A DNA stretch of 48,240 nucleotides from Paracoccaceae bacterium (lineage in GTDB: Bacteria > Pseudomonadota > Alphaproteobacteria > Rhodobacterales > Rhodobacteraceae). Positions 511 to 28,242 of this stretch are shown piece by piece (the first letter of the stretch is position 1; the number at the start of each line of letters is the position of its first letter). The translations under genes were made by a program, and so were the position numbers. Below the pieces are notes generated by a model that was not told the origin of the DNA, made no database searches, and saw only the letters and a list, made by a program, of their open reading frames with translations. The stretch lies in NCBI GenBank assembly GCA_030625695.1, contig DAOUQK010000001.1:1-48240 (forward strand), in the 5' to 3' direction.

Positions 511-517
511 TTGATCA

Positions 518-2880: not shown

Positions 2881-2998
2881 TGACAAACAATTTTGACCAA
2901 ATGGAAAAAACCTTTGGTCGCGCCCTTGACGGACCCCGGATAAATATCATGCAGTGGGCGGACGGGGTGGAACAGGATAGTTTGAGAGGGGCCAAGAC

Positions 2999-3508: not shown

Positions 3509-5014
3509 ATGCCTCAGGAATACATCGCCCTTTTCATGTTCGCCTCGATGATGCTGATGCTGATGTCGGGCCAGCGGGTGTTCGGGGCCATCGGGGCGAT
3601 TGCCGCCATTGCCGCGTTGACCCTTTGGGGCGGTGGTGGCGGCACGGACATTCCGTTTTCGGCAGCGATGAAGCTGATGAAATGGTATCCGATGCTGACC
3701 CTGCCGATGTTCATTTTTATGGGTTATGTACTTTCTGAAAGTAAGATAGCGGACGATTTGTACAAAATGTTCCACGTCTGGATGGGTCCGGTAAGTGGCG
3801 GTCTGGCAATCGGTACCATCGGGTTGATGGTGCTAATTTCGGCGATGAACGGTCTGTCAGTCGCGGGCATGGCGATTGGGGCGACCATTGCTTTGCCGGA
3901 ACTTCTCCGGCGGGGTTATGACAAAAAGATGGTCACGGGGGTGATTCAGGCCGGGTCATCCTTGGGTATTCTGGTACCACCTTCGGTGGTTCTGGTGCTC
4001 TATGCGATGATCGCGCGGCAACCTGTGGGCAAGCTGTGGTTGGCCGGTATCGTGCCGGGGCTGATGATGGCGACGATGTTCATCATCTACATCTTTATCC
4101 GCTGCAAAATTAACCCGAAACTTGGCCCGGTTCTGAAGAAAGAAGAGCTGGCCGAGTATCAGAACATCTCTAATATTCCGATCCGCCTTAACTATGTGGT
4201 GGTGGCCATGCTGGCGCTGGTGCCGGTGTTCATCAAGTTTGATCTTCTGTCCAGCCGCGATATCCTGATCTTCTGCATGGCTTCAGCGGCGATCTTTCTG
4301 ATCTTCCGCCGCAACCCGACCTTTTACACTGACGTCTTTGTCAAAGAGAAAAACCGTCTGTTGATGTCCGGCCTTCTGCCCCTGGTGATCTTCTTTGCCA
4401 TGATGATCCCGTTCATCTCGGGCTGGACCTCGCTGGTTGAAAGCTCGGCCATTGGGGCGATAACCGCTTTTGCCGCCGCCTTCCTCAAGGGGCGCATGAC
4501 CCGCGCTGTGTTCGAAGTTTCGGTTCGCCAGACCCTGGCCATTTCCTGCATGTTCATGCTGATCGTCATGGCCGCACTGGGGTTTGGCGCGGTGTTTGAC
4601 GGGTTGGGGGCTGCGCGTGCCATTGACGGGTTGTTCCGTGAACAGATGGGGCTAAGCCCCTGGACCATCCTGATCCTGATGCAGCTTTCGTTCCTGATTA
4701 TGGGCACGTTTCTGGATGACACAGCCATGCTGGTCATCGTGGCACCCCTGTATGTGCCTCTGGTCAAAATCCTTGGATTCGATCTGATCTGGTACGGGGT
4801 GCTGTACACGATCACCACGCAAATCGCCTATATGACGCCGCCGTTTGGATATAACCTTTTCTTGATGAGGGCGATGGCACCAAAAGAGATTACTATCACC
4901 GATATCTACTCGTCCATCGTGCCATTCGTGCTGGTGATGGTCGTGGCATTGGCAACCCTGATGGTGTTCCCCAATATCGCCCTTTGGCTGCCAAACTATA
5001 TCTACGCACGATAA
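3509..5014 (+). CDS. TRAP transporter large permease (DctM family, unusually long at 501 aa)
   Basis: Polytopic membrane protein with DctM-like segments (GILVPPSVVLVLYAMI, TPPFGYNLFLMRAMAP). It is translationally coupled to the DctQ-like gene. Confidence 0.9.
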   Translation: MPQEYIALFMFASMMLMLMSGQRVFGAIGAIAAIAALTLWGGGGGTDIPFSAAMKLMKWYPMLTLPMFIFMGYVLSESKIADDLYKMFHVWMGPVSGGLAIGTIGLMVLISAMNGLSVAGMAIGATIALPELLRRGYDKKMVTGVIQAGSSLGILVPPSVVLVLYAMIARQPVGKLWLAGIVPGLMMATMFIIYIFIRCKINPKLGPVLKKEELAEYQNISNIPIRLNYVVVAMLALVPVFIKFDLLSSRDILIFCMASAAIFLIFRRNPTFYTDVFVKEKNRLLMSGLLPLVIFFAMMIPFISGWTSLVESSAIGAITAFAAAFLKGRMTRAVFEVSVRQTLAISCMFMLIVMAALGFGAVFDGLGAARAIDGLFREQMGLSPWTILILMQLSFLIMGTFLDDTAMLVIVAPLYVPLVKILGFDLIWYGVLYTITTQIAYMTPPFGYNLFLMRAMAPKEITITDIYSSIVPFVLVMVVALATLMVFPNIALWLPNYIYAR

Positions 5015-5066
5015 CCAGAACCCCGGAACACGGGGCAAACTATTAACGATAACCCAGGAGGATACT

Positions 5067-6107
5067 ATGACTACCAGACGTAAGTTTATCACCACCGCCG
5101 GTGTCGGCGGCGTTGCCGCATTGGCCGCACCAAACGTGGTACGCGCGCAGTCCAAGATCAAATGGCGGATGCAAACCTATTCCGGCGCACCCTTGGGCGC
5201 GCACGTCATCAAGCCGCAGATCGAAGCCTTCAACAAGGCCGCCAACGGTGAGATGGAGATCGAGCTGTTCTACGCAGACCAACTGGTGCCGACGGACGAA
5301 TTGTTCCGCGCCATGCAGAACGGTACGCTGGATGCGGTCCAGTCGGACGATGCGACCATGGCGTCGCCTGTCGATATCTCGGACTTTGGCGGCTATTTCC
5401 CGTTCTCGTCGCGCTATTCACTCGACCTGCCGGTGTTGTTTGAACGCTATGGTCTGAACGAAATCTGGGCCGAAGCTTATGGCGAAGTCGAGAACGTCAC
5501 CTGGCTGGGTGCCGGTGCCTGGGACCCTCTGCATATCTTCACGGTCAACAAACCCATCCGCTCGCTGGCCGATATGGCCGGCCTTCGGGTGTTCGGGGTG
5601 CCAACGGCGGGTCGTTTCCTGGCGCGTTACGGCCTGATCCCGGTGACAGTGCCGTGGGAAGACGTCGACGTTGCCATGCAGACCGGCGAACTGGACGGTG
5701 TGGCCTGGTGTGGCTTTACCGAAGCTTACGAAGTGGGTTGGGCCGACATCTGCAACTATGCGCTGCTGAACAACGTCACAGGTGCGTGGTGTGGGTCGTA
5801 TTTTGCCAATAGCGAAAGCTGGGCCAAAGTACCGCCGCATTTGCAAGAGCTGTTCAAGATCACCATCGACCAGTCGCATTATTATCGTCAGGTCTGGTAT
5901 TGGGGTGGTGAGGCCGACCTGCGGGTCAACGGCAACAAGATGGAGCTGACCTCGATCCCTCAGGACGAATGGAACACCGTTGTTTCCGACGCCGAAGGTT
6001 TCTGGGACGAGTTGGCATCGCGCAGCCCACGGGCAGCCAAAGTGATCGACATCTTCAAGGAATACACCACGGTGATGGAGAAAGCTGGCGTGCCTTACCG
6101 TTACTAA
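5067..6107 (+). CDS. TRAP transporter substrate-binding protein (DctP family) with a twin-arginine signal peptide
   Basis: 346 aa. The N-terminus MTTRRKFITTAGVGGVAALAAPNVVRA is a Tat-type signal. An AGGAGGA Shine-Dalgarno sequence lies upstream. It is the third gene of a Q-M-P TRAP operon. Confidence 0.85.
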   Translation: MTTRRKFITTAGVGGVAALAAPNVVRAQSKIKWRMQTYSGAPLGAHVIKPQIEAFNKAANGEMEIELFYADQLVPTDELFRAMQNGTLDAVQSDDATMASPVDISDFGGYFPFSSRYSLDLPVLFERYGLNEIWAEAYGEVENVTWLGAGAWDPLHIFTVNKPIRSLADMAGLRVFGVPTAGRFLARYGLIPVTVPWEDVDVAMQTGELDGVAWCGFTEAYEVGWADICNYALLNNVTGAWCGSYFANSESWAKVPPHLQELFKITIDQSHYYRQVWYWGGEADLRVNGNKMELTSIPQDEWNTVVSDAEGFWDELASRSPRAAKVIDIFKEYTTVMEKAGVPYRY

Positions 6108-15344: not shown

Positions 15345-15758
15345 TCAGTCAAATTCAATCACGCCTTGTGGGTCGTGAATAATTGCATCGACAGATATTT
15401 CCACCATCATTCCGGGGGTTGTCAGCCCAGCCTCGACCGCCGTTGTGACTGGTAAAATGCCGTCGAACACTTCGCCATGGGCTTTGACAAATCCAGCCGC
15501 TGCGGCCTGCATATCCGAAAGAAACACGGTCGTTCGCACCACATGGCGCATGTCCGCGCCCACCTCTTTCAACGCGTCATCAATCCGCTTTAACGCGAAT
15601 ATTGTCTGCGCATACGCATCATTTGGCGCATGCAGCTTACCGCTTGGTTCTATCGCCGTGGTGCCGGCCACAAACACAAACGGGCCAACCCGCTTGGCCC
15701 GCGCATACGATCCGATTTCTTCAAACCGCCCGCCGGACTGGACAATCCGCAGGGTCAT
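15345..15758 (-). CDS. RidA/YjgF-family (reactive enamine/imine deaminase-like) protein; last gene of the BMC operon
   Basis: 137 aa. Its length and motifs (VFVAGTTAI, VVRTTVFL, VEISVDAI) fit the YjgF/RidA fold. An ATGA overlap joins it to the upstream MDH-like gene. Confidence 0.8.
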   Translation of the reverse strand: MTLRIVQSGGRFEEIGSYARAKRVGPFVFVAGTTAIEPSGKLHAPNDAYAQTIFALKRIDDALKEVGADMRHVVRTTVFLSDMQAAAAGFVKAHGEVFDGILPVTTAVEAGLTTPGMMVEISVDAIIHDPQGVIEFD

Positions 15759-16942
15759 TTCAGGCCCAAACGGACACGAATCGCATCGGCGGCAGCATGC
15801 AGGGCGGCGTGTTCGGTATCGGTAAGGGTCAGTTGTTCCACCTTCACCAGCCCGCTTTGACCCAGATGGGCGGGGACGCCCAGAACCACGCCGTTGACGC
15901 CAAATTCTCCTTCCAACATGACCGATACAGGCACCGGGCCGGTCCGCGCCCCGCGAATATGATCCAGCAATTCGACCGAAGAATGCGCCGGTGCAATCGT
16001 CGCCGACCCGGTCTTGCGCAAGGCAACAACCTGTCCGCCACCAGTGATCGCGTCCTTCACGCAGGCGTCAATCTGCTCTTGCGTAAGGTATATATCCAAC
16101 GGTCGCCCCTTGATGCGCGCATGCGACGGGATTGGCGCCATTTCATCGCCGTGGCTGCCCAGAGTAAACGCAGATACATCGCCCGGATTAACCCCGGCGG
16201 CCTGCGCCAAAGCATTACGGAACCGCGAGGAATCCAGCGTCCCGGCCATGCCCAAAACCCGTTCGCGGGGAAACCCCGTGGCGCGCAGCATTTCGACCGT
16301 CATTTCGTCCAGGGGGTTGGTCACCACAATCACAATCGCCCCGGGGGCCTGCGATTTGATCGCTTCGGCGGTGGAATGGATCACCCGCTTGTTGGTCTCG
16401 ATCAGGTCGGCCCGGGTCATCCCCGGACCGCGGGCGCGCCCCGCTGTCACCACAATGACCTCGGCTCCCGACACCATGTTCAGTGATGTGCCGCCAGTGA
16501 CCCGCGCACGGGTTCGGGTGATGCCGCTGGCGTGGTTGAGGTCCAGCGCGGTCGCTTCGGCGACGCCGGGTGCGATATCAATCAGGGCTATTTCATCGGC
16601 GATATCGGTATTGGCGGCAAGGTGGGCAATGTTGCTGCCAACGCCGCCCGCGCCAACCAGCGCGATTTTACTGAACCGTCTGGCACTTGGGGCTGGTTGT
16701 TTGCCGGGTGCCACCCATTTTGGCGATCGGCGGTAAAGGGCGCGGCGCATTGAGGTGGCACCATCGCTGCGCGCGGGCGTCGGCATTTCCAACGGCCCGT
16801 CCAGCAGTTTGATGCCATTACGTGCCGCCGTCTCAACCGCCAATGCGGTGACGATATCACCGGGTAAGACTTCGAACACCAGACGTCCACGCTGGCGCGC
16901 GTCCTCGATCAATTCCGAGCCTATGACACGCGGTTTGGCCAC
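15755..16942 (-). CDS. LDH-type malate/lactate dehydrogenase paralogue with a roughly 90-aa N-terminal extension
   Basis: Residues from about 92 show KIALVGAGGVGSNIAHL (Rossmann fold), DIAPGVAEATALDLNH and VVTAGRARGPGMTRADL, with Arg at the specificity position as in MDHs. They also show VTNPLDEMT, GMAGTLDSSRFR and LGSHGDEM (catalytic His). Residues 1-91 have no MDH/LDH counterpart. Confidence 0.8.
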   Translation of the reverse strand: MAKPRVIGSELIEDARQRGRLVFEVLPGDIVTALAVETAARNGIKLLDGPLEMPTPARSDGATSMRRALYRRSPKWVAPGKQPAPSARRFSKIALVGAGGVGSNIAHLAANTDIADEIALIDIAPGVAEATALDLNHASGITRTRARVTGGTSLNMVSGAEVIVVTAGRARGPGMTRADLIETNKRVIHSTAEAIKSQAPGAIVIVVTNPLDEMTVEMLRATGFPRERVLGMAGTLDSSRFRNALAQAAGVNPGDVSAFTLGSHGDEMAPIPSHARIKGRPLDIYLTQEQIDACVKDAITGGGQVVALRKTGSATIAPAHSSVELLDHIRGARTGPVPVSVMLEGEFGVNGVVLGVPAHLGQSGLVKVEQLTLTDTEHAALHAAADAIRVRLGLK

Positions 16943-17569
16943 TTAGGCGGCCTTTCCGTCGACCGCTTCAATCGCCGCCACCGCGGCGTCCATCCCGGCC
17001 TTGACTGAATCTTCTGAGCCGGAAATGAACAGGCGGCCATAGCGCCCCACCGCGCGGACCTCGACGATATCGATTTCCGAGGCCTTTTCGGCCTCATTCG
17101 CGGCGATAGAGATATAGGCCGCCGGGGCGCATTCGATGATACCAAGCGTCTGGCCCGGGACCAACAACGCACCCTTGCGCCATTTGTTAAGCAATTGCGC
17201 CTGATAGGGTTCGACCGAAGTGATGATCTGGGTGGTGCCGATATGCGGCTTGATCCGGTCGGCCATGGTAGCACCAAGTTCGTCCAGTATGGCATCCCTT
17301 GCGGCAGACACTTCGGCGTTTGACCGCGAACGAAGGATGAAGAACCCGAATTCCCGTTCCACTAATTGCGTCGTTGCCTCAACCGAACTGGCCTTTAGCG
17401 CCCGGTCAATCAGGGTGAACACACCGTTGCCGGGGGCAAATTCGCCGATCAGCACCGTGTCGCCCGAGAGCGGAACCGAGCCTTGCACGGTCGCGCCGTT
17501 ATAGGCGGCGAACTTGGGCTGCAGATTGTCGATCTGCATCAGGGCACGGATGATTATGTCGCTGCTCAT
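16943..17569 (-). CDS. BMC-T shell protein (tandem, EutL/PduB-like permuted BMC domains)
   Basis: 208 aa, consisting of two BMC-fold halves. The second half, TQIITSVEPYQAQLL...GIIECAPAAYISIAANEAEKASEIDIVEVRAVGRYGRLFISGSEDSVKAGMDAAVAAIE, parallels the EutL pattern (...[23 protein letters not shown]...FLTGSQAA...). Its stop abuts the next start. Confidence 0.8.
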   Translation of the reverse strand: MSSDIIIRALMQIDNLQPKFAAYNGATVQGSVPLSGDTVLIGEFAPGNGVFTLIDRALKASSVEATTQLVEREFGFFILRSRSNAEVSAARDAILDELGATMADRIKPHIGTTQIITSVEPYQAQLLNKWRKGALLVPGQTLGIIECAPAAYISIAANEAEKASEIDIVEVRAVGRYGRLFISGSEDSVKAGMDAAVAAIEAVDGKAA

Positions 17570-17572
17570 GGG

Positions 17573-18955
17573 TTATTCTCCGCCATATTCTTTGTAGATG
17601 TCGCGCCAGGGTCGGCTTTCATACGCCACCCGCTTGATATTGATCAGATGCAGGGCGGTGACATTGTCCGAGGTGATCGACCCCGACCAGGTGCCCGTGC
17701 CCAGCATGAAACTTGGTTCCAGATCGGTGGAATACCCCATGCCGCCCAGGATGCCGGGTGTGTTGACCAGAACGCGCCCCGTCGGCACGGAGGAAAATTG
17801 CGCAACAATTGACGGGTCGTCCGCGTGGATCACCGAGGAATGGCCCCAACCTTCGAATTTCGCGATGTTATGGGCAATCTCGATACCTTGATCGCTGTCA
17901 CGGGCCTCATAGAACGCCAATACCGGGTTCAGCTTTTCGGCTGAAAGGGGCCGGTGCCAGCCAATCTCGCTCTCCTCCGAAACCAGACAGCGGGTCCGGG
18001 GCGGGATTGAAAACCCGGCTGCGTCTGCCAGTGCCTGAGGCGATTGGCCGACGCGCTCGGGGTTCATCGCTTGCCGACCGTTAAAGATAACCTTAGCCAG
18101 ACGATCTGCCTCGGCAGGGGTGCAGAAATACGCACCCTTTAGTTTTAATTCATGGCGCAAATCACGGGCAATTTCACGGTCGGCAATAACCGCCTGTTCC
18201 GAAACGCAGGCCGTGCCATAGTCGAACGCCTTGGACATGACGATCATTTCAGCGACTTCACCTATGTCGTCCTTCTTGGACTTGTGAACATAACACGGCA
18301 CATTGCCGGCCCCTACGGCCAGTGTCGGTTTGCCCGAGGAATAGGCCGCCTTGACCATCGCCGGGCCACCCGTCGCCATGACCACCGAAGTGCGCCGGTG
18401 GCGCATTAACTCAGCCGTGCCTTGGATTGTCACCTCTTCCAGACATTGGATCAGCCCCTTGGGCGCACCCATTTGTTCGGCCACGTCGGCCATGATGCGT
18501 ACGGTTTCAATGCCACAGCGCACGCCGCGCGGGTGTGGCGCGCAAACAATGGCATTGCCGGCCTTTACCGCTGACAAAACCTTGAAAATGATGGTTGATG
18601 TAGGGTTGGTCACCGGCACCAAGGCGGCAACCACGCCCATCGGTTCGCCAAAGGCGGCGACTTTGGTGGCCTCATCGCTCCATAACATGCCCAACGTGGT
18701 CACATCACGCAGGTAATCCGCCACTGACAAAGCGTTGAACAGGTTTTTGACCCGCTTGTCTTCGACATTGCCGTATCCGGTTTCTTCCACCGCCAATTGA
18801 CCCAAGCGCAGCGCTTCTGGCTCAACGGCGCGGGCCATGGCATCAACAATGGCATCAACTTGTTTGGGGTCCGTGCCCAGAAACGCGCGGTATGCCTCAA
18901 ACGCGCTTTCGGCGCAGCGACGCGCGGCGGCGATTGATTTCAGGTCTGCGTCCAT
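17573..18955 (-). CDS. CoA-acylating aldehyde dehydrogenase (stand-alone AdhE-N-terminal type)
   Basis: 460 aa. By my recollection of the AdhE sequence it aligns from residue 1 with the aldehyde-dehydrogenase half of AdhE. Shared motifs are QLAVEETGYGNVEDK, PVTNPTST, GAGNVPCYV, FDYGTACVSEQ (catalytic Cys) and HLINIKRVA. Confidence 0.85.
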   Translation of the reverse strand: MDADLKSIAAARRCAESAFEAYRAFLGTDPKQVDAIVDAMARAVEPEALRLGQLAVEETGYGNVEDKRVKNLFNALSVADYLRDVTTLGMLWSDEATKVAAFGEPMGVVAALVPVTNPTSTIIFKVLSAVKAGNAIVCAPHPRGVRCGIETVRIMADVAEQMGAPKGLIQCLEEVTIQGTAELMRHRRTSVVMATGGPAMVKAAYSSGKPTLAVGAGNVPCYVHKSKKDDIGEVAEMIVMSKAFDYGTACVSEQAVIADREIARDLRHELKLKGAYFCTPAEADRLAKVIFNGRQAMNPERVGQSPQALADAAGFSIPPRTRCLVSEESEIGWHRPLSAEKLNPVLAFYEARDSDQGIEIAHNIAKFEGWGHSSVIHADDPSIVAQFSSVPTGRVLVNTPGILGGMGYSTDLEPSFMLGTGTWSGSITSDNVTALHLINIKRVAYESRPWRDIYKEYGGE

Positions 18956-20148
18956 TACCGTGTCCCTGCTGCAATTGCGTCCATCACCCTGCGGGCGCTG
19001 TCGATGTCACTGGCTTCGATACCGATAGTTTCAAGGCGCCGACCTGCGGCGGCGACATCCGCGCCCAAAATGCTGGACGCCAATGTGACCATCGACTGCG
19101 TTACCGGCACGTCAACGCCTGCCAGCTTCGCGGCAGAGATCAGCGGCACAAACGACCCGATCACCCCGTCGCGCATAAGAGTATTCGCGGCCTTCTGATC
19201 AGGGATACCTCGCGCGCCCGCGCCGCGTAGCGCGCCTGCGTGGATCCGCACCCAAGCGTCCGTATCCGGCAAGTTTCGCAGGCCAAAGGCCTGCGCCACC
19301 AAACGCCGTTCCTGCGCCAGACGATTAATCACCGCCCTGTGCTGTGTCCCAATAAGCGAAGCGAACGTTGCATTTTCATCCAATGCCACCCCGCCCATCG
19401 GCACAGGCGCGCCAGCGCCTTCCAACCCCGGACCGCCCAACAGCAAAGCAGGCAATTCCACCAAGGCAGAGCCGTCGGCAAAGCCGCTTTCCAACACCGA
19501 TGCCTGTTCTACCAGATCCGGTAAATACCGCGCCAACCCGCGCAATACGTCCGAGCGCCCGCGCGGCAAGGTCGCGGCAGCGACCGGGCCAACAGCGGAA
19601 AGCGTCAGTGTCGCGCCGGTTTCGGAGATCCAATACGGCAAGCCTTGGGCTTCGACCAAAGTGATATCCGCCGTACAACCACCGATGCGTAACATCCAGG
19701 CGGCCTCAAGCGCGCCCAGCGAGCGCCCCGGGGCCAGAACCAACACCTGACCATCTTGCAGATGATCCGCCAGAACCATCGCATAGGTGCGCATTTTGTG
19801 CACCGGACCGGTCAGGAAAATCACATCGGCCTTGGCCACCGCTCCGTCCAGTTCCGCCGTGGTACGAATAGAAGGCCCCGCGTCGCGATCCACCGCATAG
19901 GTGCCAACCGGCCCGTCGCCGCGAATGGTCACGCCGCTTGAGGCGCGCAACATCTGCACCTCGGCGCCGTAGGCCGAAAACAACGTTACATCCGCGCCCT
20001 CGGCCAGGCACAACGCCGCCAAAAGACGCCCTTCGACCCCGCCGCCAAGCACTGCGACACGGGACAATTCTGGCGCGTTTATCGCCACCCTTGTCCCGCC
20101 GCTTACTTTAGCAACCGCTTCTGTGAATTCCTCAAATCCGCCAGCCAT
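18955..20148 (-). CDS. Opine (octopine/nopaline) dehydrogenase-family-like NAD(P) oxidoreductase with an N-terminal amphipathic extension
   Basis: 397 aa. RVAVLGGGVEGRLLAALCLAEGADVTLF is a Rossmann fold. The middle and C-terminal region (LAPGRSLGALE, ...ENATFASLIGTQHRAVINRLAQERRLVAQAFGL...) resembles the Octopine_DH domain. The family call rests on motif recollection only. Confidence 0.55.
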   Translation of the reverse strand: MAGGFEEFTEAVAKVSGGTRVAINAPELSRVAVLGGGVEGRLLAALCLAEGADVTLFSAYGAEVQMLRASSGVTIRGDGPVGTYAVDRDAGPSIRTTAELDGAVAKADVIFLTGPVHKMRTYAMVLADHLQDGQVLVLAPGRSLGALEAAWMLRIGGCTADITLVEAQGLPYWISETGATLTLSAVGPVAAATLPRGRSDVLRGLARYLPDLVEQASVLESGFADGSALVELPALLLGGPGLEGAGAPVPMGGVALDENATFASLIGTQHRAVINRLAQERRLVAQAFGLRNLPDTDAWVRIHAGALRGAGARGIPDQKAANTLMRDGVIGSFVPLISAAKLAGVDVPVTQSMVTLASSILGADVAAAGRRLETIGIEASDIDSARRVMDAIAAGTR

Positions 20149-20165
20149 GGACCCGTCCCCTTAGC

Positions 20166-20474
20166 CTAGTCCGCAGACCCGGACCCTAGTGCGTCGAGAA
20201 TGCCTTCAAGTTCATCATGTGGCCGTGCGATCACGTGCACCGATACTACATCGCCGATCTTGTTGGCGGCTGTGGCCCCGGCATCGGTCGCCGCCTTCAC
20301 CGCCCCGACTTCACCGCGCACCAGCGTGGTGATCAGACCGCCGCCGGCTTTGGTTTGGCCCAGAATTGTCACGCTGGCCGCTTTGACCATCGCATCCGCC
20401 GCCTCGATCGAGGCGACGAGGCCACGGGTTTCGATCATTCCAAGGGCCATCTGGCCCGCTGCTGGTTTTGCCAT
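20166..20474 (-). CDS. BMC-H shell protein (hexamer, PduA/EutM-like)
   Basis: 102 aa: [77 protein letters not shown]. This is a near-canonical BMC domain. The edge Lys (AMVK) and the RPH Arg are present, and the pore loop is KAGGGL as in EutM. Confidence 0.95.
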
Positions 20475-20494: not shown

Positions 20495-20770
20495 TTATTT
20501 TTTCTTTGATATCGTAATGTGTTCAACGATTGCGATGATGCATGCATCAATCGGCACCCCGGCCAGCCCGGCGGGCAGACGCGCACCAGAACCGGTCACG
20601 ATCATCACAGTATCGCCAACGCCAGCACCGCAGGTATCAGCCGCCACCACCGACGGCTCCAACACTTTGCCGGACCCGTCAATAATGTCGCATAACAACA
20701 GCTTATGACCGGTCAGTTGGGCTTCTTTGGCCGTCGCTGTGACCGTGCCGATGACTTTTGCCACTCGCAT
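20495..20770 (-). CDS. BMC-P vertex protein (pentamer, EutN/CcmL/PduN family)
   Basis: 91 aa: MRVAKVIGTVTATAKEAQLTGHKLLLCDIID...AADTCGAGVGDTVMIVTGSGAR...PIDACIIAIVEHI. It parallels EutN (MKLAVVTGQIVCTV...KLLMVEMID...GAGTGEWVLLVSGSSAR). Its start shares nt 20770 with the stop of the GS-like gene. Confidence 0.9.
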   Translation of the reverse strand: MRVAKVIGTVTATAKEAQLTGHKLLLCDIIDGSGKVLEPSVVAADTCGAGVGDTVMIVTGSGARLPAGLAGVPIDACIIAIVEHITISKKK

Positions 20771-22065
20771 TAGAAATTATCCCGATAACGGTCGATTTCC
20801 ACCTGCGTCACTTGCTGGGAAAAGAACTCCAACTCGCGTTCGCTCTGCTGGCAGGCCAGTTCCCACATGTCGTCGCCCATCACGCCCCTGAGCCAGTCCG
20901 ACCCTCGCGCCAATGCAATGGCGTCGCGCAGGTCAGTGGGGATGGGGGCGGCATCTTCGACCTCGTAGCCATTGCCGGTGGTCATCTCAGAAGGTTCAAT
21001 GCCCTGTTCGATGCCGTCAAGACCGGCGGCAATATCACTTGCCAACAGGAAATACGGATTGCAATCGGCCCCTGCATCGCGCTTTTCCACCCGAACGGCG
21101 CTGTCATTACCTTCAATCACCCGCAGGCCAACGGTGCGGTTATCCAGCCCCCAGGTCGTGTTGATCGGACAGAAGGTATATGGCTGGCGGCGACGATAGC
21201 CGTTGACCGTGGCACTGCCGCAAATCGAGGCTTCGGCCATGCGTTTCTGCATGCCGCCAACAAAATGACGGCCCGTTTGGTTCAACTTGCCATTGTCGGC
21301 AAAGACGTTCTTGCCGTCTTTCCATAGCGAATAGTGGCAGTGAAACCCGTTGCCGGAATCCTCATAAAACGGCTTGGCCATAAAGGTCGCTTTATAGCCA
21401 TGCGCGCCTGCCAGTTGTTTGACCAGGGAACGGAACATCACCACCCGGTCCGCCGACAGTAACGCCTCGTCGAAGCGTACATTCACTTCGACCTGGCCGG
21501 CCGCGTATTCCGGGTTTGATTGCTCAATCGGAATGCCACATTCGTTGATCTGGGTGCGGATTGGGCCAAGCACATGTTCAAGCTCTGCCGCCCTCTCAAG
21601 CCCATAAACCTGAATGCCGGAATCCCTCGGTTTGCCGGTTTCGGGATCAAGCAGATAGAATTCCAATTCGGTCCCGACCTGAACCTCAAACCCCATGTCA
21701 GCCGCGCGTTTCACCTGACGCTCAAGCATTGGGCGCGGGTCAATCGGTACTTGCTTGTGATTCATCCCCTCGGCGCGGGCAAAACACATGGCCACGCCCG
21801 GCTCCCACGGCAGGGCGACCGGTTTGGTCATCGGGAACATGTGCATGTCGGGATAACCGTTGTCGAAATTGACATACGGCGTGTCCCAGACGTCGCAGGT
21901 CATATCAATGGCGAAAAGGGCGAGCGAGTAGGCATTGCCATTATTGCAAATGTTCTCCCAATGGCTGGCCGGAATACGCTTGCCGCGCATAATGCCGTTC
22001 AGGTCTCCAAGGCCCAGAATTACCGTATGTGTTCCCTCGGGTAACGTGAAATCAGTTGACGTCAA
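20770..22065 (-). CDS. Glutamine-synthetase-family enzyme (candidate gamma-glutamyl-amine synthetase, GmaS/PuuA-like); first gene of the BMC operon
   Basis: GS catalytic motifs are present: GTELEFYLL, NPEYAAGQVEVN, ATFMAKP, GNGFHCHYSLW, NGYRRR, WGLDNRTVGLRV, RVEKRDAGADCNPYF. The track start at 22080 is a TTG sitting inside a GGGAGG Shine-Dalgarno sequence. I prefer the TTG at 22065, 7 nt after that sequence, but the start remains uncertain. Confidence 0.85.
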   Translation of the reverse strand: MTSTDFTLPEGTHTVILGLGDLNGIMRGKRIPASHWENICNNGNAYSLALFAIDMTCDVWDTPYVNFDNGYPDMHMFPMTKPVALPWEPGVAMCFARAEGMNHKQVPIDPRPMLERQVKRAADMGFEVQVGTELEFYLLDPETGKPRDSGIQVYGLERAAELEHVLGPIRTQINECGIPIEQSNPEYAAGQVEVNVRFDEALLSADRVVMFRSLVKQLAGAHGYKATFMAKPFYEDSGNGFHCHYSLWKDGKNVFADNGKLNQTGRHFVGGMQKRMAEASICGSATVNGYRRRQPYTFCPINTTWGLDNRTVGLRVIEGNDSAVRVEKRDAGADCNPYFLLASDIAAGLDGIEQGIEPSEMTTGNGYEVEDAAPIPTDLRDAIALARGSDWLRGVMGDDMWELACQQSERELEFFSQQVTQVEIDRYRDNF

Positions 22066-22103
22066 GATGCAACCTCCCAATTGCTTATGGTCTTGCGTTT
22101 AGT

Positions 22104-22138
22104 TGTATTCTGTATACAGTATTCAAAAATACAGTCAA
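22104..22138. promoter_or_regulatory. Operator/promoter B in the divergent region between the BMC operon and the flavoenzyme gene
   Basis: Tandem heptads TGTATTC-TGTATAC-AGTATTC (22104-22124) contain the palindrome CTGTATACAG (22110-22119). On the minus strand a -35-like TTGACT (22133-22138) lies 16 nt upstream of TATACA (22111-22116). Confidence 0.55.
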
Positions 22139-22169
22139 CAGCACCAAAACGACAAGGACGATTTTGATC

Positions 22170-23309
22170 ATGGCACCCAGCAACATCATTGTCGTGGGCG
22201 GTGGTATTGCCGGTACGATGACGGCGCTTGAACTTCAGCGCAAGGGTGAACAGGTGACGCTGATCGACCGGTGGGAACCGGGGCATTCGCGGGCCTCTTC
22301 AACCGATTACAACCGGGTGATCCGGGCGATTTCCGGACGGGACGAATTCTATACCAAATGGGCGCGGGAAAGCCGGTTGCGGTGGTTGGAACTTCAGGCC
22401 GAAAGTGGCCAGAATCTGATGTATGAATGCGGTGCTTTGATCCTGGCCACCGAGGGCCATTGCGATTGGGAAGACGCGACAAGTCAGACCTTCGACAAGC
22501 TTGGCGTGCCTTATTACAAGTATTCGCAGTCGGAAATTCAGCAAAGATTTCCCCAGTTTCGCGTGCCCGACATCGGCTATGCCCTGTTCGAACCCGAGGC
22601 GGGCATGCTGATGGCGCACCGCTGTGTTCTGACCGGGATCGACCTGTTCAAACGCGCGGGCGGCGTGGTGAAACGGGGCCGCGTGACCACCGATGGGTCC
22701 GAGCGGCCGATGCTGGATGGCAAGCTGCTTGAGGCGGATGTTATCATCATCGCCACTGGCCCGTGGATGTCAGATATGTTCCCGCGCACCATTAAGCCGA
22801 TCACCACAGTGATTGGTGTCAATGTGATCTATACCTCGACCCCCGACGGGTCGGACGCATTTGACATGGAAAACATGCCCTGCTGGATTGATCATGGGCG
22901 TAGTTCGTTTGGCCTGCCGTCGTCCGAAGGGTCGGGCGTCAAGGCGGCTGTGGTTATCCCTGACAAGATCGACCTTGATAACGACGAACGCCTGATCCGG
23001 CGTGAATGTCTAAGCCGCACCCGCAGTTATATCGAACACCGCTTCCCGGGGTTGGTGGGCGAAAAGGTGGTAGATTCCAAGTTCAACCAGATCATCCTGA
23101 CGCCAGATACGCATTTCATTGTCGACTGGCACCCCGAGCATGACAATGTTCTTTTCGCGGGGGGCTGTTCCGGGCATCTGTTCAAACACGCGCCCGTATT
23201 CGGCAGCTTTGTGGCCGGGGTCGCGGTTGGGGACTATGGCACGGCCGACCGGTTCAAGGTTGCCAACCGACGCAAACTTAGCCCGAAAGAAAGCCCGTCA
23301 GGACGATAA
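22170..23309 (+). CDS. Monomeric sarcosine-oxidase-like (MSOX/DAO family) FAD-dependent secondary-amine oxidoreductase
   Basis: ORF 22056..23309. The preferred start is ATG 22170, with an AAGGA Shine-Dalgarno sequence upstream. MAPSNIIVVGGGIAGTMTALEL is a GxGxxG motif. GHSRASSTDYNRVIR...RLRWLELQ matches the MSOX/SolA pattern. GGCSGHLFK resembles the region carrying the covalent-flavin Cys in MSOX-type enzymes; that point is tentative. Confidence 0.8.
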   Translation: MAPSNIIVVGGGIAGTMTALELQRKGEQVTLIDRWEPGHSRASSTDYNRVIRAISGRDEFYTKWARESRLRWLELQAESGQNLMYECGALILATEGHCDWEDATSQTFDKLGVPYYKYSQSEIQQRFPQFRVPDIGYALFEPEAGMLMAHRCVLTGIDLFKRAGGVVKRGRVTTDGSERPMLDGKLLEADVIIIATGPWMSDMFPRTIKPITTVIGVNVIYTSTPDGSDAFDMENMPCWIDHGRSSFGLPSSEGSGVKAAVVIPDKIDLDNDERLIRRECLSRTRSYIEHRFPGLVGEKVVDSKFNQIILTPDTHFIVDWHPEHDNVLFAGGCSGHLFKHAPVFGSFVAGVAVGDYGTADRFKVANRRKLSPKESPSGR

Positions 23310-23639
23310 ATCGGCGTAATGTGCCGCGTTCGGGCAGTCATAAGGATCAAACGCGCCTTCATTTCCGGCCAGAAATGCTTTGCATTCCTTGGACTTTTCA
23401 CAGGTTGTACAGGCTAGGACAATCTCTAACGCGCGCCAGCGGGTGGCGTCGATAACTTTGCCGGTGACGCCGAAATGTGCTGCCATCGCCTCCATCTGGT
23501 TACGCACCCCGGGGCGGGCATTGGCAAATGTTGCAATGTCTTCGCGCGATACGGACAGATCGGCGCAAAGCCGGTCGAGTTCCTGCGATGTCAGAATCCT
23601 TTTACGGGCCCTGTCAAACAACCCTAGTAATCCAGTCAT
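23298..23639 (-). CDS. Small Cys-motif protein (DUF6455-like), function unknown
   Basis: 113 aa with a strong AGGAGG Shine-Dalgarno sequence 9 nt upstream. C-x2-C-x5-C-x2-FL...CPN (CTTCEKSKECKAFLAGNEGAFDPYDCPN) matches my recollection of DUF6455 proteins of Rhodobacterales. Its 3' end overlaps the convergent flavoenzyme gene by 12 bp. Confidence 0.6.
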   Translation of the reverse strand: MTGLLGLFDRARKRILTSQELDRLCADLSVSREDIATFANARPGVRNQMEAMAAHFGVTGKVIDATRWRALEIVLACTTCEKSKECKAFLAGNEGAFDPYDCPNAAHYADLSS

Positions 23640-23698
23640 GCGGCTATCCTCCTGATTGCGACGCTAAAGTCTGAAAGACTGCAAGACTTTGAGGCAGA

Positions 23699-24391
23699 TC
23701 AATTTACCGGCGCGCCACGCAGTAATTTAGCCGCTTCCTTGGCCATCAGATCAACCAGCACGTCGCCAGAAACGACAGACGCCAGCCGGTCTTTGGTCTC
23801 GACAGGGGATTGTTGATCGCCTGCGTTTTTTTCAATCGCATGAGTAATAAATGCGCGGGTGAATTCCGGGTGGAATTGCACCGACATGGCCGGGAAATCA
23901 TAGGCCAGAACGCCAAACGGACAATAATCAGCACCGCCCAGAACCCTGGCCCCGGGTGGTACTTTTATCACCTGATCGCGGTGCCAGACATGGGCATCAA
24001 CGTCTTTCCCGTTCACCTTAAAGCGCCGCACGCCAACCACTTCGCCCAAACCGGCCAGTTCTGCCTTGCCGCCATAAACCTCGGCCATGAATTGATGAGC
24101 GAAACAGATACCGAAAACCGGAGCCGCCTGCGCCTTTGCTTCCAGCAAGAAGGTGCGCAAACGCCCCAACCAAGGCATATCATCATAAACGCCCTTCTCG
24201 GACCCACTCAGTACAAATCCGTCAAAATCGCCAACCTGCGGCACCGGCGTGCCAGCCGTTACTTCGATCACCGTCAGTTCATCACCCGGCATCGCCGGGG
24301 CCAGCCATTCGCGGATTGTGCGGCCTACGTGTTTGCCGCCGCCGATGTCTTCGGGCAGGTCGGTCAGGTTCAGGATGGCAATCCTTACCAA
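23699..24391 (-). CDS. Class I glutamine amidotransferase-fold protein (candidate gamma-glutamyl-amide hydrolase)
   Basis: 230 aa. The nucleophile elbow GICFAHQ and the His/Glu pair in QFHPE are present. The TTG start overlaps the upstream stop (GATTGGTAA). Confidence 0.8.
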   Translation of the reverse strand: MVRIAILNLTDLPEDIGGGKHVGRTIREWLAPAMPGDELTVIEVTAGTPVPQVGDFDGFVLSGSEKGVYDDMPWLGRLRTFLLEAKAQAAPVFGICFAHQFMAEVYGGKAELAGLGEVVGVRRFKVNGKDVDAHVWHRDQVIKVPPGARVLGGADYCPFGVLAYDFPAMSVQFHPEFTRAFITHAIEKNAGDQQSPVETKDRLASVVSGDVLVDLMAKEAAKLLRGAPVN

Positions 24392-25806
24392 TCGAACACC
24401 CGGTCAATTCCGGCCATCTTGACGCCAGTAAAGGCTGATGCCTGAAACGACAGCGCGCGCAGGTCTTCGACCTCAAGATTATGCACCGAAGACTTGCCGC
24501 AGGCCTTGGCCAGCGCCGTCATCTCCATGGTCATCGCCGTCAGATACCGCGCCACCCGCTCGGCCCCCGCCGCCGGATTCATGCGTTTTTCCAACTCAGG
24601 ATCCTGCGTTGCAATTCCCACCGGGCAACGCCCGGTATGGCAATGGTGACACGCGCCCGGAGAGGTTCCAAGCGCCTCATAATCCTCAAGATAGCGCGGT
24701 GAATTACACCCCGCCGCAATCATCGCGCCATTGCCGATCATCACTGCATCGGCACCCAGTGCGATGCACTTGGCCGCGTCCACTCCGGTGCGGATACCGC
24801 CCGCAACCACCAGCGTTACCTTGCCCGACATGCCACAGTCATCCAGTGCTTCGCGGCCCGCGCGAATGGCGCTCATGGTTGGCACACCGGTATGGTTCAA
24901 CAGCATCTCGGGCGACGCACCTGTGCCACCTTCGGCCCCATCCAGAACCACCACATCCGCACCCGCCTTGGCCGCAACGGCCACGTCGAACCGGGGGCGG
25001 GTCGCGCCCATCTTGATAAAGATCGGCACCTGGTAATTGGTGGCAATACGTAGTTCTTCGATCTTGACCGCAAGGTCGTCGGCACCCAGGAAATCCGGGT
25101 GACGGATGGTTGATCTTTGATCAACCCCTTCTGGCAAGGTGCGCATTTCAGACACCCTCGGGCTGACCTTCATGCCCAACAGCAAGCCGCCAGTGCCGGG
25201 CTTGGCCCCTTGCCCTACAACAATCTCAATCCCGTCGGCGCGGCGCAGATGGTCCAGATCAACGCCATAACGCGCCGGGGACATCTGATAGACCAGCCGT
25301 TGCGAGGCTTCGCGCTCTTCCTCAAGCATCCCGCCTTCGCCAGTGCAGGTCATTGTGCCCGCTTTGGACGCGCCATAGCCCAAAGACGCCTTGGCTGACG
25401 CCGACAACGCACCAAACGACATCGACGCGATATAGATCGGGATTTTCAACTCGATCGGCTTTTCAACCAAGCCACGTCCACCGCCCAAAATGGTCGTGGT
25501 ATCGCAGGTTTCGCGGTATCCTTCCAACGGCAACCGCGTCATGGTGGCCGGCACAAAGGTCAGATCATCAAACGTCGGCAATTGCTGGTTGAACGAGTTA
25601 TAGCCGCGCACCTGGTAGCGGCCCAATTGCGCCAATGCGTGCACTTCGGCAATCGAATCCGGGTCCCAGCGGGCCGAACCACCCTTGGCATATGATGCGG
25701 GCACCCCGGCGGGGCGGCCCTCAACAGCACCGTCACCAAATTTGATCTCGGCCTCATCGGCCATTTCGAACGGGTATTCATACGGTTTGTTCAGATCATG
25801 AGCCAT
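24385..25806 (-). CDS. FMN-binding glutamate-synthase-domain protein (GlxD/MgsC-like)
   Basis: 473 aa. ASMSFGALS, VVGQGAKPGTGG, VVLDGAEGGTGASP and VVAGGIRTG are hallmarks of the GltS FMN domain. A CHHCHTGRCPVG Cys cluster is also present. Confidence 0.9.
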   Translation of the reverse strand: MAHDLNKPYEYPFEMADEAEIKFGDGAVEGRPAGVPASYAKGGSARWDPDSIAEVHALAQLGRYQVRGYNSFNQQLPTFDDLTFVPATMTRLPLEGYRETCDTTTILGGGRGLVEKPIELKIPIYIASMSFGALSASAKASLGYGASKAGTMTCTGEGGMLEEEREASQRLVYQMSPARYGVDLDHLRRADGIEIVVGQGAKPGTGGLLLGMKVSPRVSEMRTLPEGVDQRSTIRHPDFLGADDLAVKIEELRIATNYQVPIFIKMGATRPRFDVAVAAKAGADVVVLDGAEGGTGASPEMLLNHTGVPTMSAIRAGREALDDCGMSGKVTLVVAGGIRTGVDAAKCIALGADAVMIGNGAMIAAGCNSPRYLEDYEALGTSPGACHHCHTGRCPVGIATQDPELEKRMNPAAGAERVARYLTAMTMEMTALAKACGKSSVHNLEVEDLRALSFQASAFTGVKMAGIDRVFDW

Positions 25807-26483
25807 GCGTTTGCATCCCTGCTTTCAAAATACCAAAGCCGTTGGCCCGAGATCATCTTGCGCCAGTCGCGCGATGTATCCACCAGCCCCAAAGGCTCTA
25901 AAATTGCGTCCACCTCGGCCACTTCTTCGGCGTTCGGTTCAATGGTTTCCACATCGACGCCGACGCTTTCAACCGGGCCGGCAACCCAGACTTCGCCTTG
26001 CCACAAGGCATCCGCACAGCTTTCGCCAGCCCCGCCCAAGGCGATAATCCGCCCGGAATGTGCCATGAAACCGGACTGATAGCCGATTTTTCCTTCGACC
26101 ACGATATTGCCGCCCTTCATCGCCACACCAACCCGCGGGCCGGCGTCTCCTTTGACGTGAATGGTGCCGCCCATCATCGCCGCCCCGCAGGACATGCCGC
26201 AATAGCCACCGACGGTGATCATGCCATCCGACATGCCTTCGCCCAAGGCCCAACCGGCGTTGCGTTCGATATTGATCGTGGCACCTGTGTTCAACCCGCC
26301 GCAGAAATAACCAACCGAGCCTTCGAAATGCAGGTCAGCGCCGGGCGGCAGGCCGATGCCAAGGTTATGGCGCGACAGGGTGTTGGTCACCCGGATTTTG
26401 TCACCGGCTTTGGCCGCTGTCTGCATGTCCTGATTAATCTCGCGGATATGGCGTTGGCTGACGTCGATAATGACTTCACTCAT
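25791..26483 (-). CDS. GXGXG-motif beta-helix protein (glutamate synthase C-terminal-domain-like, GlxC/MgsB-like)
   Basis: 230 aa with repeated Gly-rich turns (GSVGYFCGGL, VGGYCGMSCG, MGGTIHVKGDAG, MKGGNIVVEG). An ATGA overlap joins it to the upstream amidotransferase gene. Confidence 0.85.
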   Translation of the reverse strand: MSEVIIDVSQRHIREINQDMQTAAKAGDKIRVTNTLSRHNLGIGLPPGADLHFEGSVGYFCGGLNTGATINIERNAGWALGEGMSDGMITVGGYCGMSCGAAMMGGTIHVKGDAGPRVGVAMKGGNIVVEGKIGYQSGFMAHSGRIIALGGAGESCADALWQGEVWVAGPVESVGVDVETIEPNAEEVAEVDAILEPLGLVDTSRDWRKMISGQRLWYFESRDANAWLMI

Positions 26484-27424
26484 GCGGCCAGACTCCGGTT
26501 GCCGACGCCCCAGATGCCCATCAGGCTGGGACCGTCGTGATTGATAACATCTTCTTCGCCGGTGAACACACGGCGCACCGCCTGTTCTTCGGTCGCCACT
26601 GCCAGATCGCCATTCTTGTCGATCACCACCAGTGGTTTCATCGCAAACCGGTCTTTGGCAAAGCCAATGCCGTCGGGACGCGCAATCATATAGGTGAACA
26701 CGCCGTCGATTGAGGTGATGGATTTACGCAACGCCTGCTCCATGCTTAGCCCTGCCTTGATCTGGTCCGATACCCAAACCGCAATCAGTTCGGAATCGTT
26801 TTCGGTCAGGAAACGATAGCCCCGCCGCTCCAGCTTGTCCCGCCAGGTAAAATAATCGGTGATCTGGCCGTTATGCACAATCGCCACGTCCGAAAACGGT
26901 CGTGCCCAGAATGGGTGGCTGGCATTGGGCAACACCGAACTTTCCGTAGCCAGCCGCGCATGGCCAAGCCCGTGGGTGCCGATCATGTCGCGCACCCCGT
27001 GTTTGTCAGCCACTTCGACCGCGCTGCCGGTGTCTTTGATGATTTCCAACGACCGCCCGCAGGACTGGATTTCGATCCGGTCGGTCAGAGTGTCGGCGTC
27101 TTTGATCCAAGCGGTCAAGTCACGCGGATCGCTGATTTCCATGCGAAAACAATAATGTGCATTTTGGTCTGTGGTTATCTGTGGCTCGCTCAGAAAATCC
27201 GATCCATGACCCCGCAACACATGGGTAAAACCATCCAGATCACTGTCCATCGACGATTTGTCAAACCCCATGCCGCGTAGGGTGTAGCCGGTTTCGCGGG
27301 GTTCCGTGTAGATCGCAAAACCGGTACTGTCGGCACCACGATGCCTTTGCGCATCCATCAGTTCGACCAAATCGTGCCCGACCTTGCCTGGCGCATTCAA
27401 AATCCGACCAGCGATTCCACACAT
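26480..27424 (-). CDS. Class II (Ntn) glutamine amidotransferase-domain protein (GlxB/MgsA-like)
   Basis: ORF 26480..27493. Starting at ATG 27424 (GAGGGGA Shine-Dalgarno sequence upstream) gives MCGIAGRIL..., with the Ntn nucleophile Cys directly after Met. Confidence 0.85.
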   Translation of the reverse strand: MCGIAGRILNAPGKVGHDLVELMDAQRHRGADSTGFAIYTEPRETGYTLRGMGFDKSSMDSDLDGFTHVLRGHGSDFLSEPQITTDQNAHYCFRMEISDPRDLTAWIKDADTLTDRIEIQSCGRSLEIIKDTGSAVEVADKHGVRDMIGTHGLGHARLATESSVLPNASHPFWARPFSDVAIVHNGQITDYFTWRDKLERRGYRFLTENDSELIAVWVSDQIKAGLSMEQALRKSITSIDGVFTYMIARPDGIGFAKDRFAMKPLVVIDKNGDLAVATEEQAVRRVFTGEEDVINHDGPSLMGIWGVGNRSLAA

Positions 27425-27445
27425 GACATTCCCCTCGAAAGTGTT

Positions 27446-27478
27446 TGTATACAGTATACCGTATTCACTTAAGTTCAA
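27446..27478. promoter_or_regulatory. Operator/promoter C between the GlxBCD-like operon and the GntR gene
   Basis: Tandem heptads TGTATAC-AGTATAC-CGTATTC (27446-27466) contain TGTATACAGTA. On the minus strand a -35-like TTGAAC (27473-27478) lies 16 nt upstream of TACTGT. Extra ATACAG half-sites sit at 27522-27536. Confidence 0.55.
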
Positions 27479-27579
27479 GGCGATTCTTAACAACCTGCTT
27501 TATTGTACTCTGGATTCAGGATACAGAAATACAGAAGACTCTGCAAATTCATGCGCAAATTCACGACAAGAGGCCCGCA

Positions 27580-28242
27580 ATGCCACTTAAAAGCATCCAA
27601 CCCGCCCGCCGCCGTCTGGCTGATGAGGTGTACGAACAGTTGATCGACGCGATCATGCGACGCGAAATTGGGCCGGACGACCATCTGGTGCAGGAAAAGC
27701 TGGCGGCGGAATTACAGATCAGTCGCACGCCGGTGCGCGAGGCGCTGATGCGGCTGGAACAGGACGGTGTGCTGGAAGTGTCCAATCGCGGCAGTTTCCG
27801 GCTTTACCAGATGAACGACGCAGAAATTCGCGAGTTATACCAGGCGCGCGCGGCGGTCGAAGGGCAATCGGCGCGGATCCTCGCCAATGATCCCAAGTCC
27901 GAAGTCATTGCCAAATTGCGCGATTGTGTGCAGCGCGAAGAGAACGTCAGCGACGATTCGGCCAAAGGTTATTTCGAGGCCAACCGCAATATTCACCGCA
28001 AATTCGTCGAACTGGCAGGCAATCGGTTCCTGTTGGAGATGTTTGACATGATCTGGGGCAAGGCCATGGCGTTTCACCTGTTTGCGGCGATCGAAAACGT
28101 CGATCTGTCCAAATCTCTGGGCGCGCATATGGAATTAGTCGATGTGGTCGCCTCGGGCGATAAGGGCGCGGCGCTGGAAGCGTTCACAAACCACATTCAG
28201 GATGGGTTTGATTTGCAGATCGAAGGGCTGAGAGCCGGATGA
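27580..28242 (+). CDS. GntR-family transcriptional regulator (FadR/FCD subfamily)
   Basis: ORF 27445..28242; the preferred start is ATG 27580. The winged HTH is LAAELQISRTPVREALMRLEQDGVLEV, followed by an all-helical C-terminal domain. Confidence 0.9.
   Translation: MPLKSIQPARRRLADEVYEQLIDAIMRREIGPDDHLVQEKLAAELQISRTPVREALMRLEQDGVLEVSNRGSFRLYQMNDAEIRELYQARAAVEGQSARILANDPKSEVIAKLRDCVQREENVSDDSAKGYFEANRNIHRKFVELAGNRFLLEMFDMIWGKAMAFHLFAAIENVDLSKSLGAHMELVDVVASGDKGAALEAFTNHIQDGFDLQIEGLRAG

Follow-up and report, generated by a model that had tools for sequence, protein, structure and literature searches.

Which of the enzymes encoded in a bacterial microcompartment (BMC) locus of type MIC2 carries a peptide that could bring it into the shell, and how is such a peptide built? 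The question is raised by a 48,240-nucleotide stretch of DNA from a Paracoccaceae bacterium (assembly GCA_030625695.1, contig DAOUQK010000001.1, positions 1 to 48,240; hereafter the window), in which a minus-strand operon places a 397-residue dehydrogenase among genes for shell proteins. An earlier note on this DNA had proposed that about 30 residues in front of the enzyme's first Rossmann strand form an encapsulation peptide, that is, a short amphipathic helix followed by a linker. On the strength of sequence comparison and structure modelling, we consider it probable that residues 1–29 are an encapsulation (assembly) peptide. The gene and the parts of its leader are as follows.

18955..20148, minus strand: predicted opine-dehydrogenase-fold enzyme, 397 residues (profile, Foldseek, AlphaFold2)
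20156..20162, minus strand: Shine-Dalgarno-like AAGGGGA, 7 nt upstream of the dehydrogenase ATG, read from sequence
20059-20148, minus strand: codons 1–30 of the open reading frame 18955-20148, reading MAGGFEEFTEAVAKVSGGTRVAINAPELSR and followed by VAVLGGGVEG
MAGGFEEFTEAVAKV, minus strand: leader peptide segment, N-terminus of the dehydrogenase
20104..20139, minus strand: predicted amphipathic helix, residues 4–15, GFEEFTEAVAKV (AlphaFold2/DSSP, hydrophobic moment)
20107-20136, minus strand: conserved core F5-x-x-F8-[T/A]-x-A11-[A/V/I]-x-[R/K]14 (homologue alignment)
20062..20103, minus strand: poorly conserved, probably disordered linker, residues 16–29, SGGTRVAINAPELS (low model confidence, entropy, indels)
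20029..20061, minus strand: first Rossmann strand and glycine motif, residues 30–40, RVAVLGGGVEG (strand 30–34)

The dehydrogenase ATG (20148-20146, minus strand) lies 17 nt past the stop codon of the gene for the BMC-H shell hexamer, and purine-rich GGAG/GGGA-type sites occupy the equivalent place in most orthologous loci. The length proposed for the extension is borne out: residues 30–34 form the first Rossmann strand in the AlphaFold2 model, L34 and G35 are invariant in the dehydrogenase family, and the solved structures of related enzymes begin at about residue 30, with residue 6 of 1BG6 and residue 4 of 3C7A aligning to family profile position 29 (about residue 30 here) and no leader in either.

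AlphaFold2 and DSSP place a helix at residues 4–15, where the predicted local distance difference test score (pLDDT) is about 55; for residues 14–22 it is below 50. The hydrophobic moment of the leader peaks at 0.60 over residues 5–15 and amounts to 0.55 over residues 4–14, a value reached by 0.8% of shuffles, and the family mean for the leader helix is 0.57. The short amphipathic helix of the earlier note is thus recovered by the model and by the moment calculation alike. Its polar face is acidic (E6, E7, E10). A Pfam search with the 30-residue leader, at E-values up to 10, returned no match.

Conservation was read in 119 full-length homologues with 62–94% identity to the window dehydrogenase and in 81 genome loci, the latter comprising a Ruegeria genome and 80 of the 186 species-representative genomes in which a scan with a 12-sequence alignment had located relatives of the dehydrogenase. 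F5 and F8 are invariant in 119/119 homologues and in the 81 loci. Across the family, chance could hardly account for such a pattern. Across the 119 homologues, position 11 is Ala in 90%, position 12 is A, V or I, position 9 is T or A, and position 14 is mostly R or K. The hydrophobic residues named beforehand (F5, F8, V12 and V15) are all present in the window protein, but V15 is not conserved in the family, so that positions 5, 8, 11 and 12 alone make up the conserved hydrophobic or small face. In all 81 genome loci the motif F-x-x-F-[A/T]-x-A starts 2–5 residues past the start codon.

The alignment columns of residues 1–14 have a mean entropy of 1.40 bits and those of the enzyme body one of 0.97 bits; in residues 15–29, where indels also occur, the mean rises to 2.86 bits. 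Counted from the equivalent of residue 15, the family linker measures 13–22 residues, of which G, A and S together make up 38%, P and T 21%, and charged or polar residues 23%. The description of this segment as poorly structured agrees with the low pLDDT, but the description as Gly-rich does not hold: the linker is rich in A, S, P and T, and Gly accounts for 2 of its 14 residues in the window protein and for 7% across the family.

At the two invariant positions the Phe codons are divided between TTC and TTT (47/33 and 42/38), the nucleotide entropies across the three codon positions being 0, 0 and about 1.0, and third positions are saturated throughout. Because the Phe codons are split in this way and third positions are saturated, selection acts on the protein and not on an RNA or DNA element; judged by these codon patterns, the leader is translated and under protein-level selection.

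Occurrence of the leader beside shell genes

Homologues were sought exhaustively among 1.84 billion cluster representatives, and they fall sharply into two groups by identity. With at least 33% identity there are 28 full-length representatives, and 26 of them bear an N-terminal extension of at least 20 residues (20–39); a mis-called start accounts for one exception and N-truncation for the other. In this wider set the leader consensus broadens to [D/E]-F-x-x-[F/V/L]-[V/T/A]-x-A-[L/V/A], and the linker behind it is rich in Pro, Ala and Ser. In the 117 full-length representatives below 33% identity, the median leader is 6 residues long and the proteins begin at the Rossmann strand.

Genomic context follows the same division. 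All 80 loci read from the species-representative genomes are of MIC2 type, mostly from marine Rhodobacteraceae, Granulosicoccaceae and Hyphomicrobiales, and all 81 loci, the Ruegeria locus included, are syntenic, with gaps solely at contig ends. Every extension-bearing homologue examined adjoins shell genes, in the 81 genome loci as well as in the further loci L002, L090–L093 and L085/L086. Distant extension-bearing representatives (about 34–49% identity) likewise sit in loci that combine glutamine-synthetase-like, BMC-P, BMC-H, dehydrogenase and aldehyde dehydrogenase genes; for three of them (P0164, P0155 and P0137, about 34–44% identity), BMC-H adjoins the dehydrogenase, and the glutamine-synthetase-like, BMC-P and aldehyde dehydrogenase genes are present wherever the contig extends. 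Around five distinct leaderless non-BMC homologues (seven loci), no shell genes occur within the stretches read, and the neighbours are enolase-superfamily, TRAP-transporter, opine-oxidase-like or B12-binding genes. The extension thus proves specific to microcompartment loci when set against non-BMC homologues, as the earlier note would have it.

Two BMC-associated homologues, P0134 and P0136, had appeared to be leaderless. They were rejected as exceptions: the motif stands in frame just upstream of mis-called starts, as SFQHFADA and MTSGGFGEVVSAF.

A separate lineage supplies an independent comparison. The homologue P0184 is 37–44% identical to leaderless non-BMC enzymes, including one close leaderless relative in a TRAP-transporter locus (P0310), and 24–33% identical to the MIC2-clade proteins. 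Its N-terminus carries an unrelated helix of textbook appearance, MSDPRVDAIVAAVMKEL, and a Pro/Ala-rich linker of about 40 residues. The gene lies in a BMC locus different from MIC2 (metagenome contigs L085/L086, genes 91-5715), with BMC-H on one side and, on the other, genes for aldehyde dehydrogenase, BMC-Tdp, a flavoprotein resembling PduS and a shell protein resembling PduT. What the two locus types have in common is a module in which BMC-H and BMC-Tdp flank the pair of dehydrogenase and aldehyde dehydrogenase. Two lineages that bear a different helix and linker at the same terminus, and only beside shell genes, are the strongest computational argument for encapsulation that these sequence comparisons provide.

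The MIC2 locus and the alternatives

The genes around the dehydrogenase, listed from the far side of the operon's first gene to its distal end, are the following.

within 22056-28242, on the other side of the operon: divergent gene for a sarcosine/N-methyltryptophan-oxidase-like flavoprotein
within 22056-28242: four N-methylglutamate synthase subunit-like genes, a class-I amidotransferase and a GntR/FCD regulator
20770..22080, minus strand: glutamine-synthetase-like ligase, first operon gene (Pfam Gln-synt_C, 7e-91)
20495..20770, minus strand: BMC-P vertex pentamer gene (Pfam EutN_CcmL, 2.9e-25)
20166..20474, minus strand: BMC-H shell hexamer gene, candidate binding partner (Pfam BMC, 1.3e-25)
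17573..18955, minus strand: acylating aldehyde dehydrogenase (Pfam Aldedh; TIGR02518 at 507 bits against a cut-off of 620)
16943..17569, minus strand: BMC-T, double-stacking, permuted, CsoS1D/CcmP-like (Pfam BMC; NCBIfam CcmP-like below cut-off)
15755..16942, minus strand: malate/lactate-dehydrogenase-like enzyme (Pfam Ldh_1_N and Ldh_1_C from residue 92)
15345-15758, minus strand: RidA-like protein, operon member
minus-strand operon, beyond the RidA-like gene: Liv-type ABC transporter

By gene content and synteny, the window locus is of type MIC2 (Sutter et al., 2021). The MIC2 gene set is complete, with a pfam00171 aldehyde dehydrogenase, an N-extended pfam02866 dehydrogenase, a 6-phosphogluconate dehydrogenase (6PGDH)-like protein and a pfam00120 ligase, and the syntenic locus of Ruegeria sp. 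ANG-R (L068) is itself catalogued as MIC2, as are those of other Rhodobacteraceae (Sutter et al., 2021). The shell genes among the scanned proteins are those of BMC-H, of BMC-P and of BMC-T only; wherever the contig extends far enough, the gene directly upstream of the dehydrogenase is that of BMC-H, and the Ruegeria orthologue of BMC-T carries CsoS1D_N. The NCBIfam matches of the neighbouring enzymes are all below their cut-offs, including those of the ligase to type III glutamine synthetase and gamma-glutamylputrescine synthetase. The TTG listed as the start of the ligase reading frame (22066-22080, minus strand) probably lies upstream of the true start by about 5 codons, the first five residues being gapped in 80–90% of 79 aligned sequences.

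Within this locus the dehydrogenase is the sole enzyme with a short helix-plus-linker peptide. No helix-plus-linker was found at the termini of the glutamine-synthetase-like ligase, the RidA-like protein or the shell proteins, nor at the N- or C-terminus of the aldehyde dehydrogenase, and a search for F-x-x-F at the termini of the other window proteins returned nothing, leaving the dehydrogenase as the only terminal match. The last ~15 residues of the aldehyde dehydrogenase (SRPWRDIY...) are highly conserved in 77 orthologues and contiguous with the core.

Several observations weigh against an encapsulation peptide. At about 12 residues, of which about 10 form the conserved core, the helix is short beside the 15–20 typical of such peptides; the core is built on two aromatics, a type reported to be rare in the encapsulation peptides of metabolosomes; and the helix prediction is of moderate confidence (pLDDT about 55). 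Within the MIC2 clade, moreover, extension and BMC context are fully confounded with phylogeny, a confounding that is broken by the P0184 lineage only. Finally, one non-BMC homologue, P0194 (L087, 1617-2753), encoded in an opine-catabolism-like operon, begins MENVFALFETSV, an F-x-x-F-like leader, its start reading MENVFALFETSVKDPP. As a non-BMC carrier of the leader, P0194 was rejected: it is a singleton. The leader of its closest relative, at 52% identity, is unrelated, and among 60 further relatives no leader is conserved; one of these, P0289, has a chance F-x-x-F that abuts the first strand with no linker. On these comparisons, the P0194 match looks like chance.

Among competing explanations, the one that survives best, although we regard it as unlikely, holds that the leader is a cargo–cargo adaptor only, its F-x-x-F helix binding another lumenal protein or self-associating while shell contact is made elsewhere. 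Candidate partners are the aldehyde dehydrogenase and the malate-dehydrogenase-like protein with its N-domain, and this N-domain might be the actual shell tether. In its favour, the aldehyde dehydrogenase has no peptide, and its gene appears to be translationally coupled to that of the dehydrogenase: the dehydrogenase stop codon and the aldehyde dehydrogenase ATG overlap by 1 nt (TAATG, 18953-18957), an arrangement that suggests translational coupling and perhaps co-translational pairing of both enzymes. The malate-dehydrogenase-like protein, for its part, has a conserved N-domain of about 50 residues and then a partly hypervariable linker (residues ~52–90). This domain has been described as BMC-specific and EutQ-like (Sutter et al., 2021). 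If it does not tether the cargo to the shell itself, it may serve as a further module for encapsulation. With its 90-residue N-domain, Pfam gave no match at E-values up to 10, and a sequence search of solved structures gave chance-level matches only, so that the likeness to EutQ was not reproduced. The encapsulation peptides of metabolosomes are also reported to self-assemble and to drive condensation. Against a separate adaptor, one peptide serves both roles in characterised systems. The adaptor is a sub-variant of the encapsulation peptide proposed here and no true alternative to it.

Less likely again, and in our view improbable, is an element intrinsic to the enzyme, for instance a lid with a regulatory function or an arm for oligomerisation, kept as a lineage trait unrelated to encapsulation. 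The inseparability of extension and BMC context from shared ancestry in the MIC2 clade would fit this explanation, as would the conservation of F5 and F8, which is stricter than usual for encapsulation peptides and so counts against the encapsulation reading as well. A low-confidence helix on a hypervariable, indel-tolerant linker, however, is ill suited to precise docking, and P0184 carries an unrelated helix and linker at its terminus, whereas its nearest non-BMC relatives have none.

A membrane-targeting amphipathic helix or a secretion signal is very improbable: short N-terminal amphipathic helices with aromatics do suit such a function, but the polar face here is acidic and not cationic, the leader has no hydrophobic core stretch and no twin-arginine motif, and its carrier, whose gene stands between those of shell proteins, is a soluble dehydrogenase of the NAD(P) type. 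An annotation artefact, in which translation truly starts near the Rossmann strand (where V31 and V33 have GTG codons) and the DNA is conserved as a regulatory or RNA element, is scarcely credible in view of an ATG and a Shine-Dalgarno-like site that are conserved in position and of amino acids that are kept while third codon positions are saturated, which is the signature of coding selection.

The dehydrogenase and its possible role in the compartment

The preferred reading, an encapsulation peptide, places weight on the enzyme that carries it. By Pfam alone the body of the protein is hard to place: Octopine_DH scores 23.2 bits where 30 is the cut-off, and NAD_Gly3P_dh_N and F420_oxidored are also below theirs. 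A profile of 75 family sequences finds N-(1-D-carboxylethyl)-L-norvaline dehydrogenase (CENDH, 1BG6) as the best solved relative (E = 1.9e-19, positions 29–381), and the AlphaFold2 model (mean pLDDT 86.6) matches the same structure in Foldseek (E = 1.1e-21, TM-scores 0.72/0.80), followed by octopine, pseudopaline and staphylopine dehydrogenases. According to the model and the profile, the enzyme has the opine-dehydrogenase fold, with a Rossmann domain and a helical Octopine_DH domain.

We stop short of naming it a bona fide opine dehydrogenase, because the Pfam threshold is not reached and because the nearly invariant Glu231 (19456-19458, minus strand) aligns with His202 of CENDH, which we take to be the catalytic residue there; the register of this alignment is uncertain at 24% identity. 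The end of strand beta-2 reads F-S-A-Y-G invariantly in the family, without an acidic residue. Judged from the sequence, chemistry and cofactor preference may differ from those of classical opine dehydrogenases. The dehydrogenase is also among the least conserved proteins of the locus, with 58–69% identity to the window protein in most loci (L001, L005–L084); in the same loci, identities are 74–90% for the aldehyde dehydrogenase, 76–92% for BMC-H, 72–94% for BMC-T and 48–69% for BMC-P.

If residues 1–29 act as proposed, the amphipathic helix at residues 4–15 would present a face made of F5, F8, A11 and V12, and the flexible, sequence-tolerant linker of about 14 residues would hold it off the opine-dehydrogenase-fold enzyme. 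By analogy with known systems, we infer that this face would dock on BMC-H and/or BMC-T where the MIC2 shell faces the lumen, self-associate, or do both. Docking would bring the dehydrogenase into the compartment, where an oligomeric form of it could become the multivalent nucleus of a cargo core. The aldehyde dehydrogenase, which carries no such peptide, would need to enter by piggy-backing, and the overlap of the two genes might assist this through co-translational assembly.

In the oxidative direction, the chemistry of opine dehydrogenases would split a secondary amine into an amino acid and a carbonyl compound. Position in the locus and precedent make the dehydrogenase a plausible best candidate for the aldehyde-producing signature enzyme of this compartment, and oxidative cleavage of an N-substituted amino acid is one reaction that it could catalyse. 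The neighbouring genes would be compatible with such a substrate. The Glu_synthase, GXGXG and GATase_6 proteins encoded within 22056-28242 correspond to the domain set of N-methylglutamate synthase, and this gene group is conserved in the Ruegeria locus; taken together with the glutamine-synthetase-like ligase, the genes hint at a gamma-glutamyl or N-alkyl-glutamate route for some amine. The ligase, the N-methylglutamate-synthase-like subunits, the amidotransferase/hydrolase, the sarcosine-oxidase-like flavoprotein and RidA could between them supply or process the N-substituted amino acid.

Being the sole carrier of a short helix-plus-linker, the dehydrogenase is where experiments should be pointed, as the probable anchor of the cargo core and the likely aldehyde source. 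A larger proposal, which we put forward as doubtful in its entirety, is that F-x-x-F represents a short aromatic class of encapsulation peptide that acts as the sole peptide tether of a minimal-shell metabolosome, that its carrier is a new aldehyde-releasing signature enzyme, and that MIC2 is an amine-catabolising organelle. Were this so, an opine-dehydrogenase-fold oxidoreductase would cleave an N-substituted glutamate or other amino acid inside the compartment, with release of the aldehyde, from a substrate provided by the adjacent glutamine-synthetase-like ligase and N-methylglutamate-synthase-like proteins, and MIC2 amine catabolism would be widespread in marine Rhodobacteraceae and related Proteobacteria. 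A tag of 10–12 residues built on F-x-x-F, together with a three-protein shell, could also serve as a compact tool for synthetic compartments.

Prior prediction and comparison with known encapsulation peptides

The encapsulation-peptide idea for the MIC2 dehydrogenase is already in print as a prediction. In a catalogue entry based on 22 loci, the protein, named there '6-phosphogluconate dehydrogenase-like', is annotated with the remark 'could be a ~10aa long predicted helical EP' (that is, encapsulation peptide), and no such peptide is assigned to the MIC2 aldehyde dehydrogenase (Sutter et al., 2021, Nat Commun 12:3809, Supplementary Data 2). Protein and terminus are the same as here; that entry gives no sequence motif or control. 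In the literature searched, MIC2 has no assigned function, signature enzyme or NAD+ regeneration route, and neither later work on MIC2, experimental or bioinformatic, nor anything that links microcompartments with opine dehydrogenases came to light there. As a discovery, the present result is modest, since the idea had been printed and what we supply are the controls and the consensus motif: 81 genome loci yield F-x-x-F-[T/A]-x-A as the consensus, non-BMC homologues serve as the contrast, and apparent exceptions are resolved. Also added are the independent BMC-associated lineage with its different peptide and the assignment of the opine-dehydrogenase fold.

Published accounts define encapsulation peptides as terminal amphipathic helices, typically of 15–20 (about 18) residues, joined by a variable linker of small or hydrophilic residues and found only on BMC-associated homologues (Kinney 2012; Aussignargues 2015). 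In metabolosomes that have been characterised, the signature enzyme bears at least one of them. The MIC2 leader agrees with this definition in its terminal position outside the fold, its predicted helicity and amphipathicity, its variable linker and its BMC-specificity; with 12 residues, its helix is shorter than the typical one. The proposal of an encapsulation peptide is therefore supported computationally, but the word 'canonical', which the earlier note had attached to it, is overstated for a helix of about 12 residues with two Phe and a linker of about 14 residues.

Compared with the structurally characterised relatives of its carrier, CENDH (1BG6) and octopine dehydrogenase (3C7A), the window enzyme shares the two-domain fold, but those proteins start at the Rossmann strand, and the leader is a feature of the window enzyme. 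The beta-carboxysome peptide of CcmN, which has also been described with aromatics, offers a parallel as a cargo–shell tether. It differs in being C-terminal, in sitting on a non-enzymatic adaptor behind a linker of 23–277 residues, in being reported not to self-condense, and in having no sequence relationship to the MIC2 leader. Relative to PduP, PduD and EutC, in which the helix extends over about 18 residues and the hydrophobic face is made of Leu and Ile, the MIC2 helix is about 12 residues long and displays two invariant Phe, and its linker averages about 14 residues, against 22–58 in PduD and 36–91 in EutC. The moment of 0.60 is comparable to that of the PduP peptide, and confinement to BMC-associated homologues is a property that the MIC2 leader has in common with PduP, PduD and EutC.

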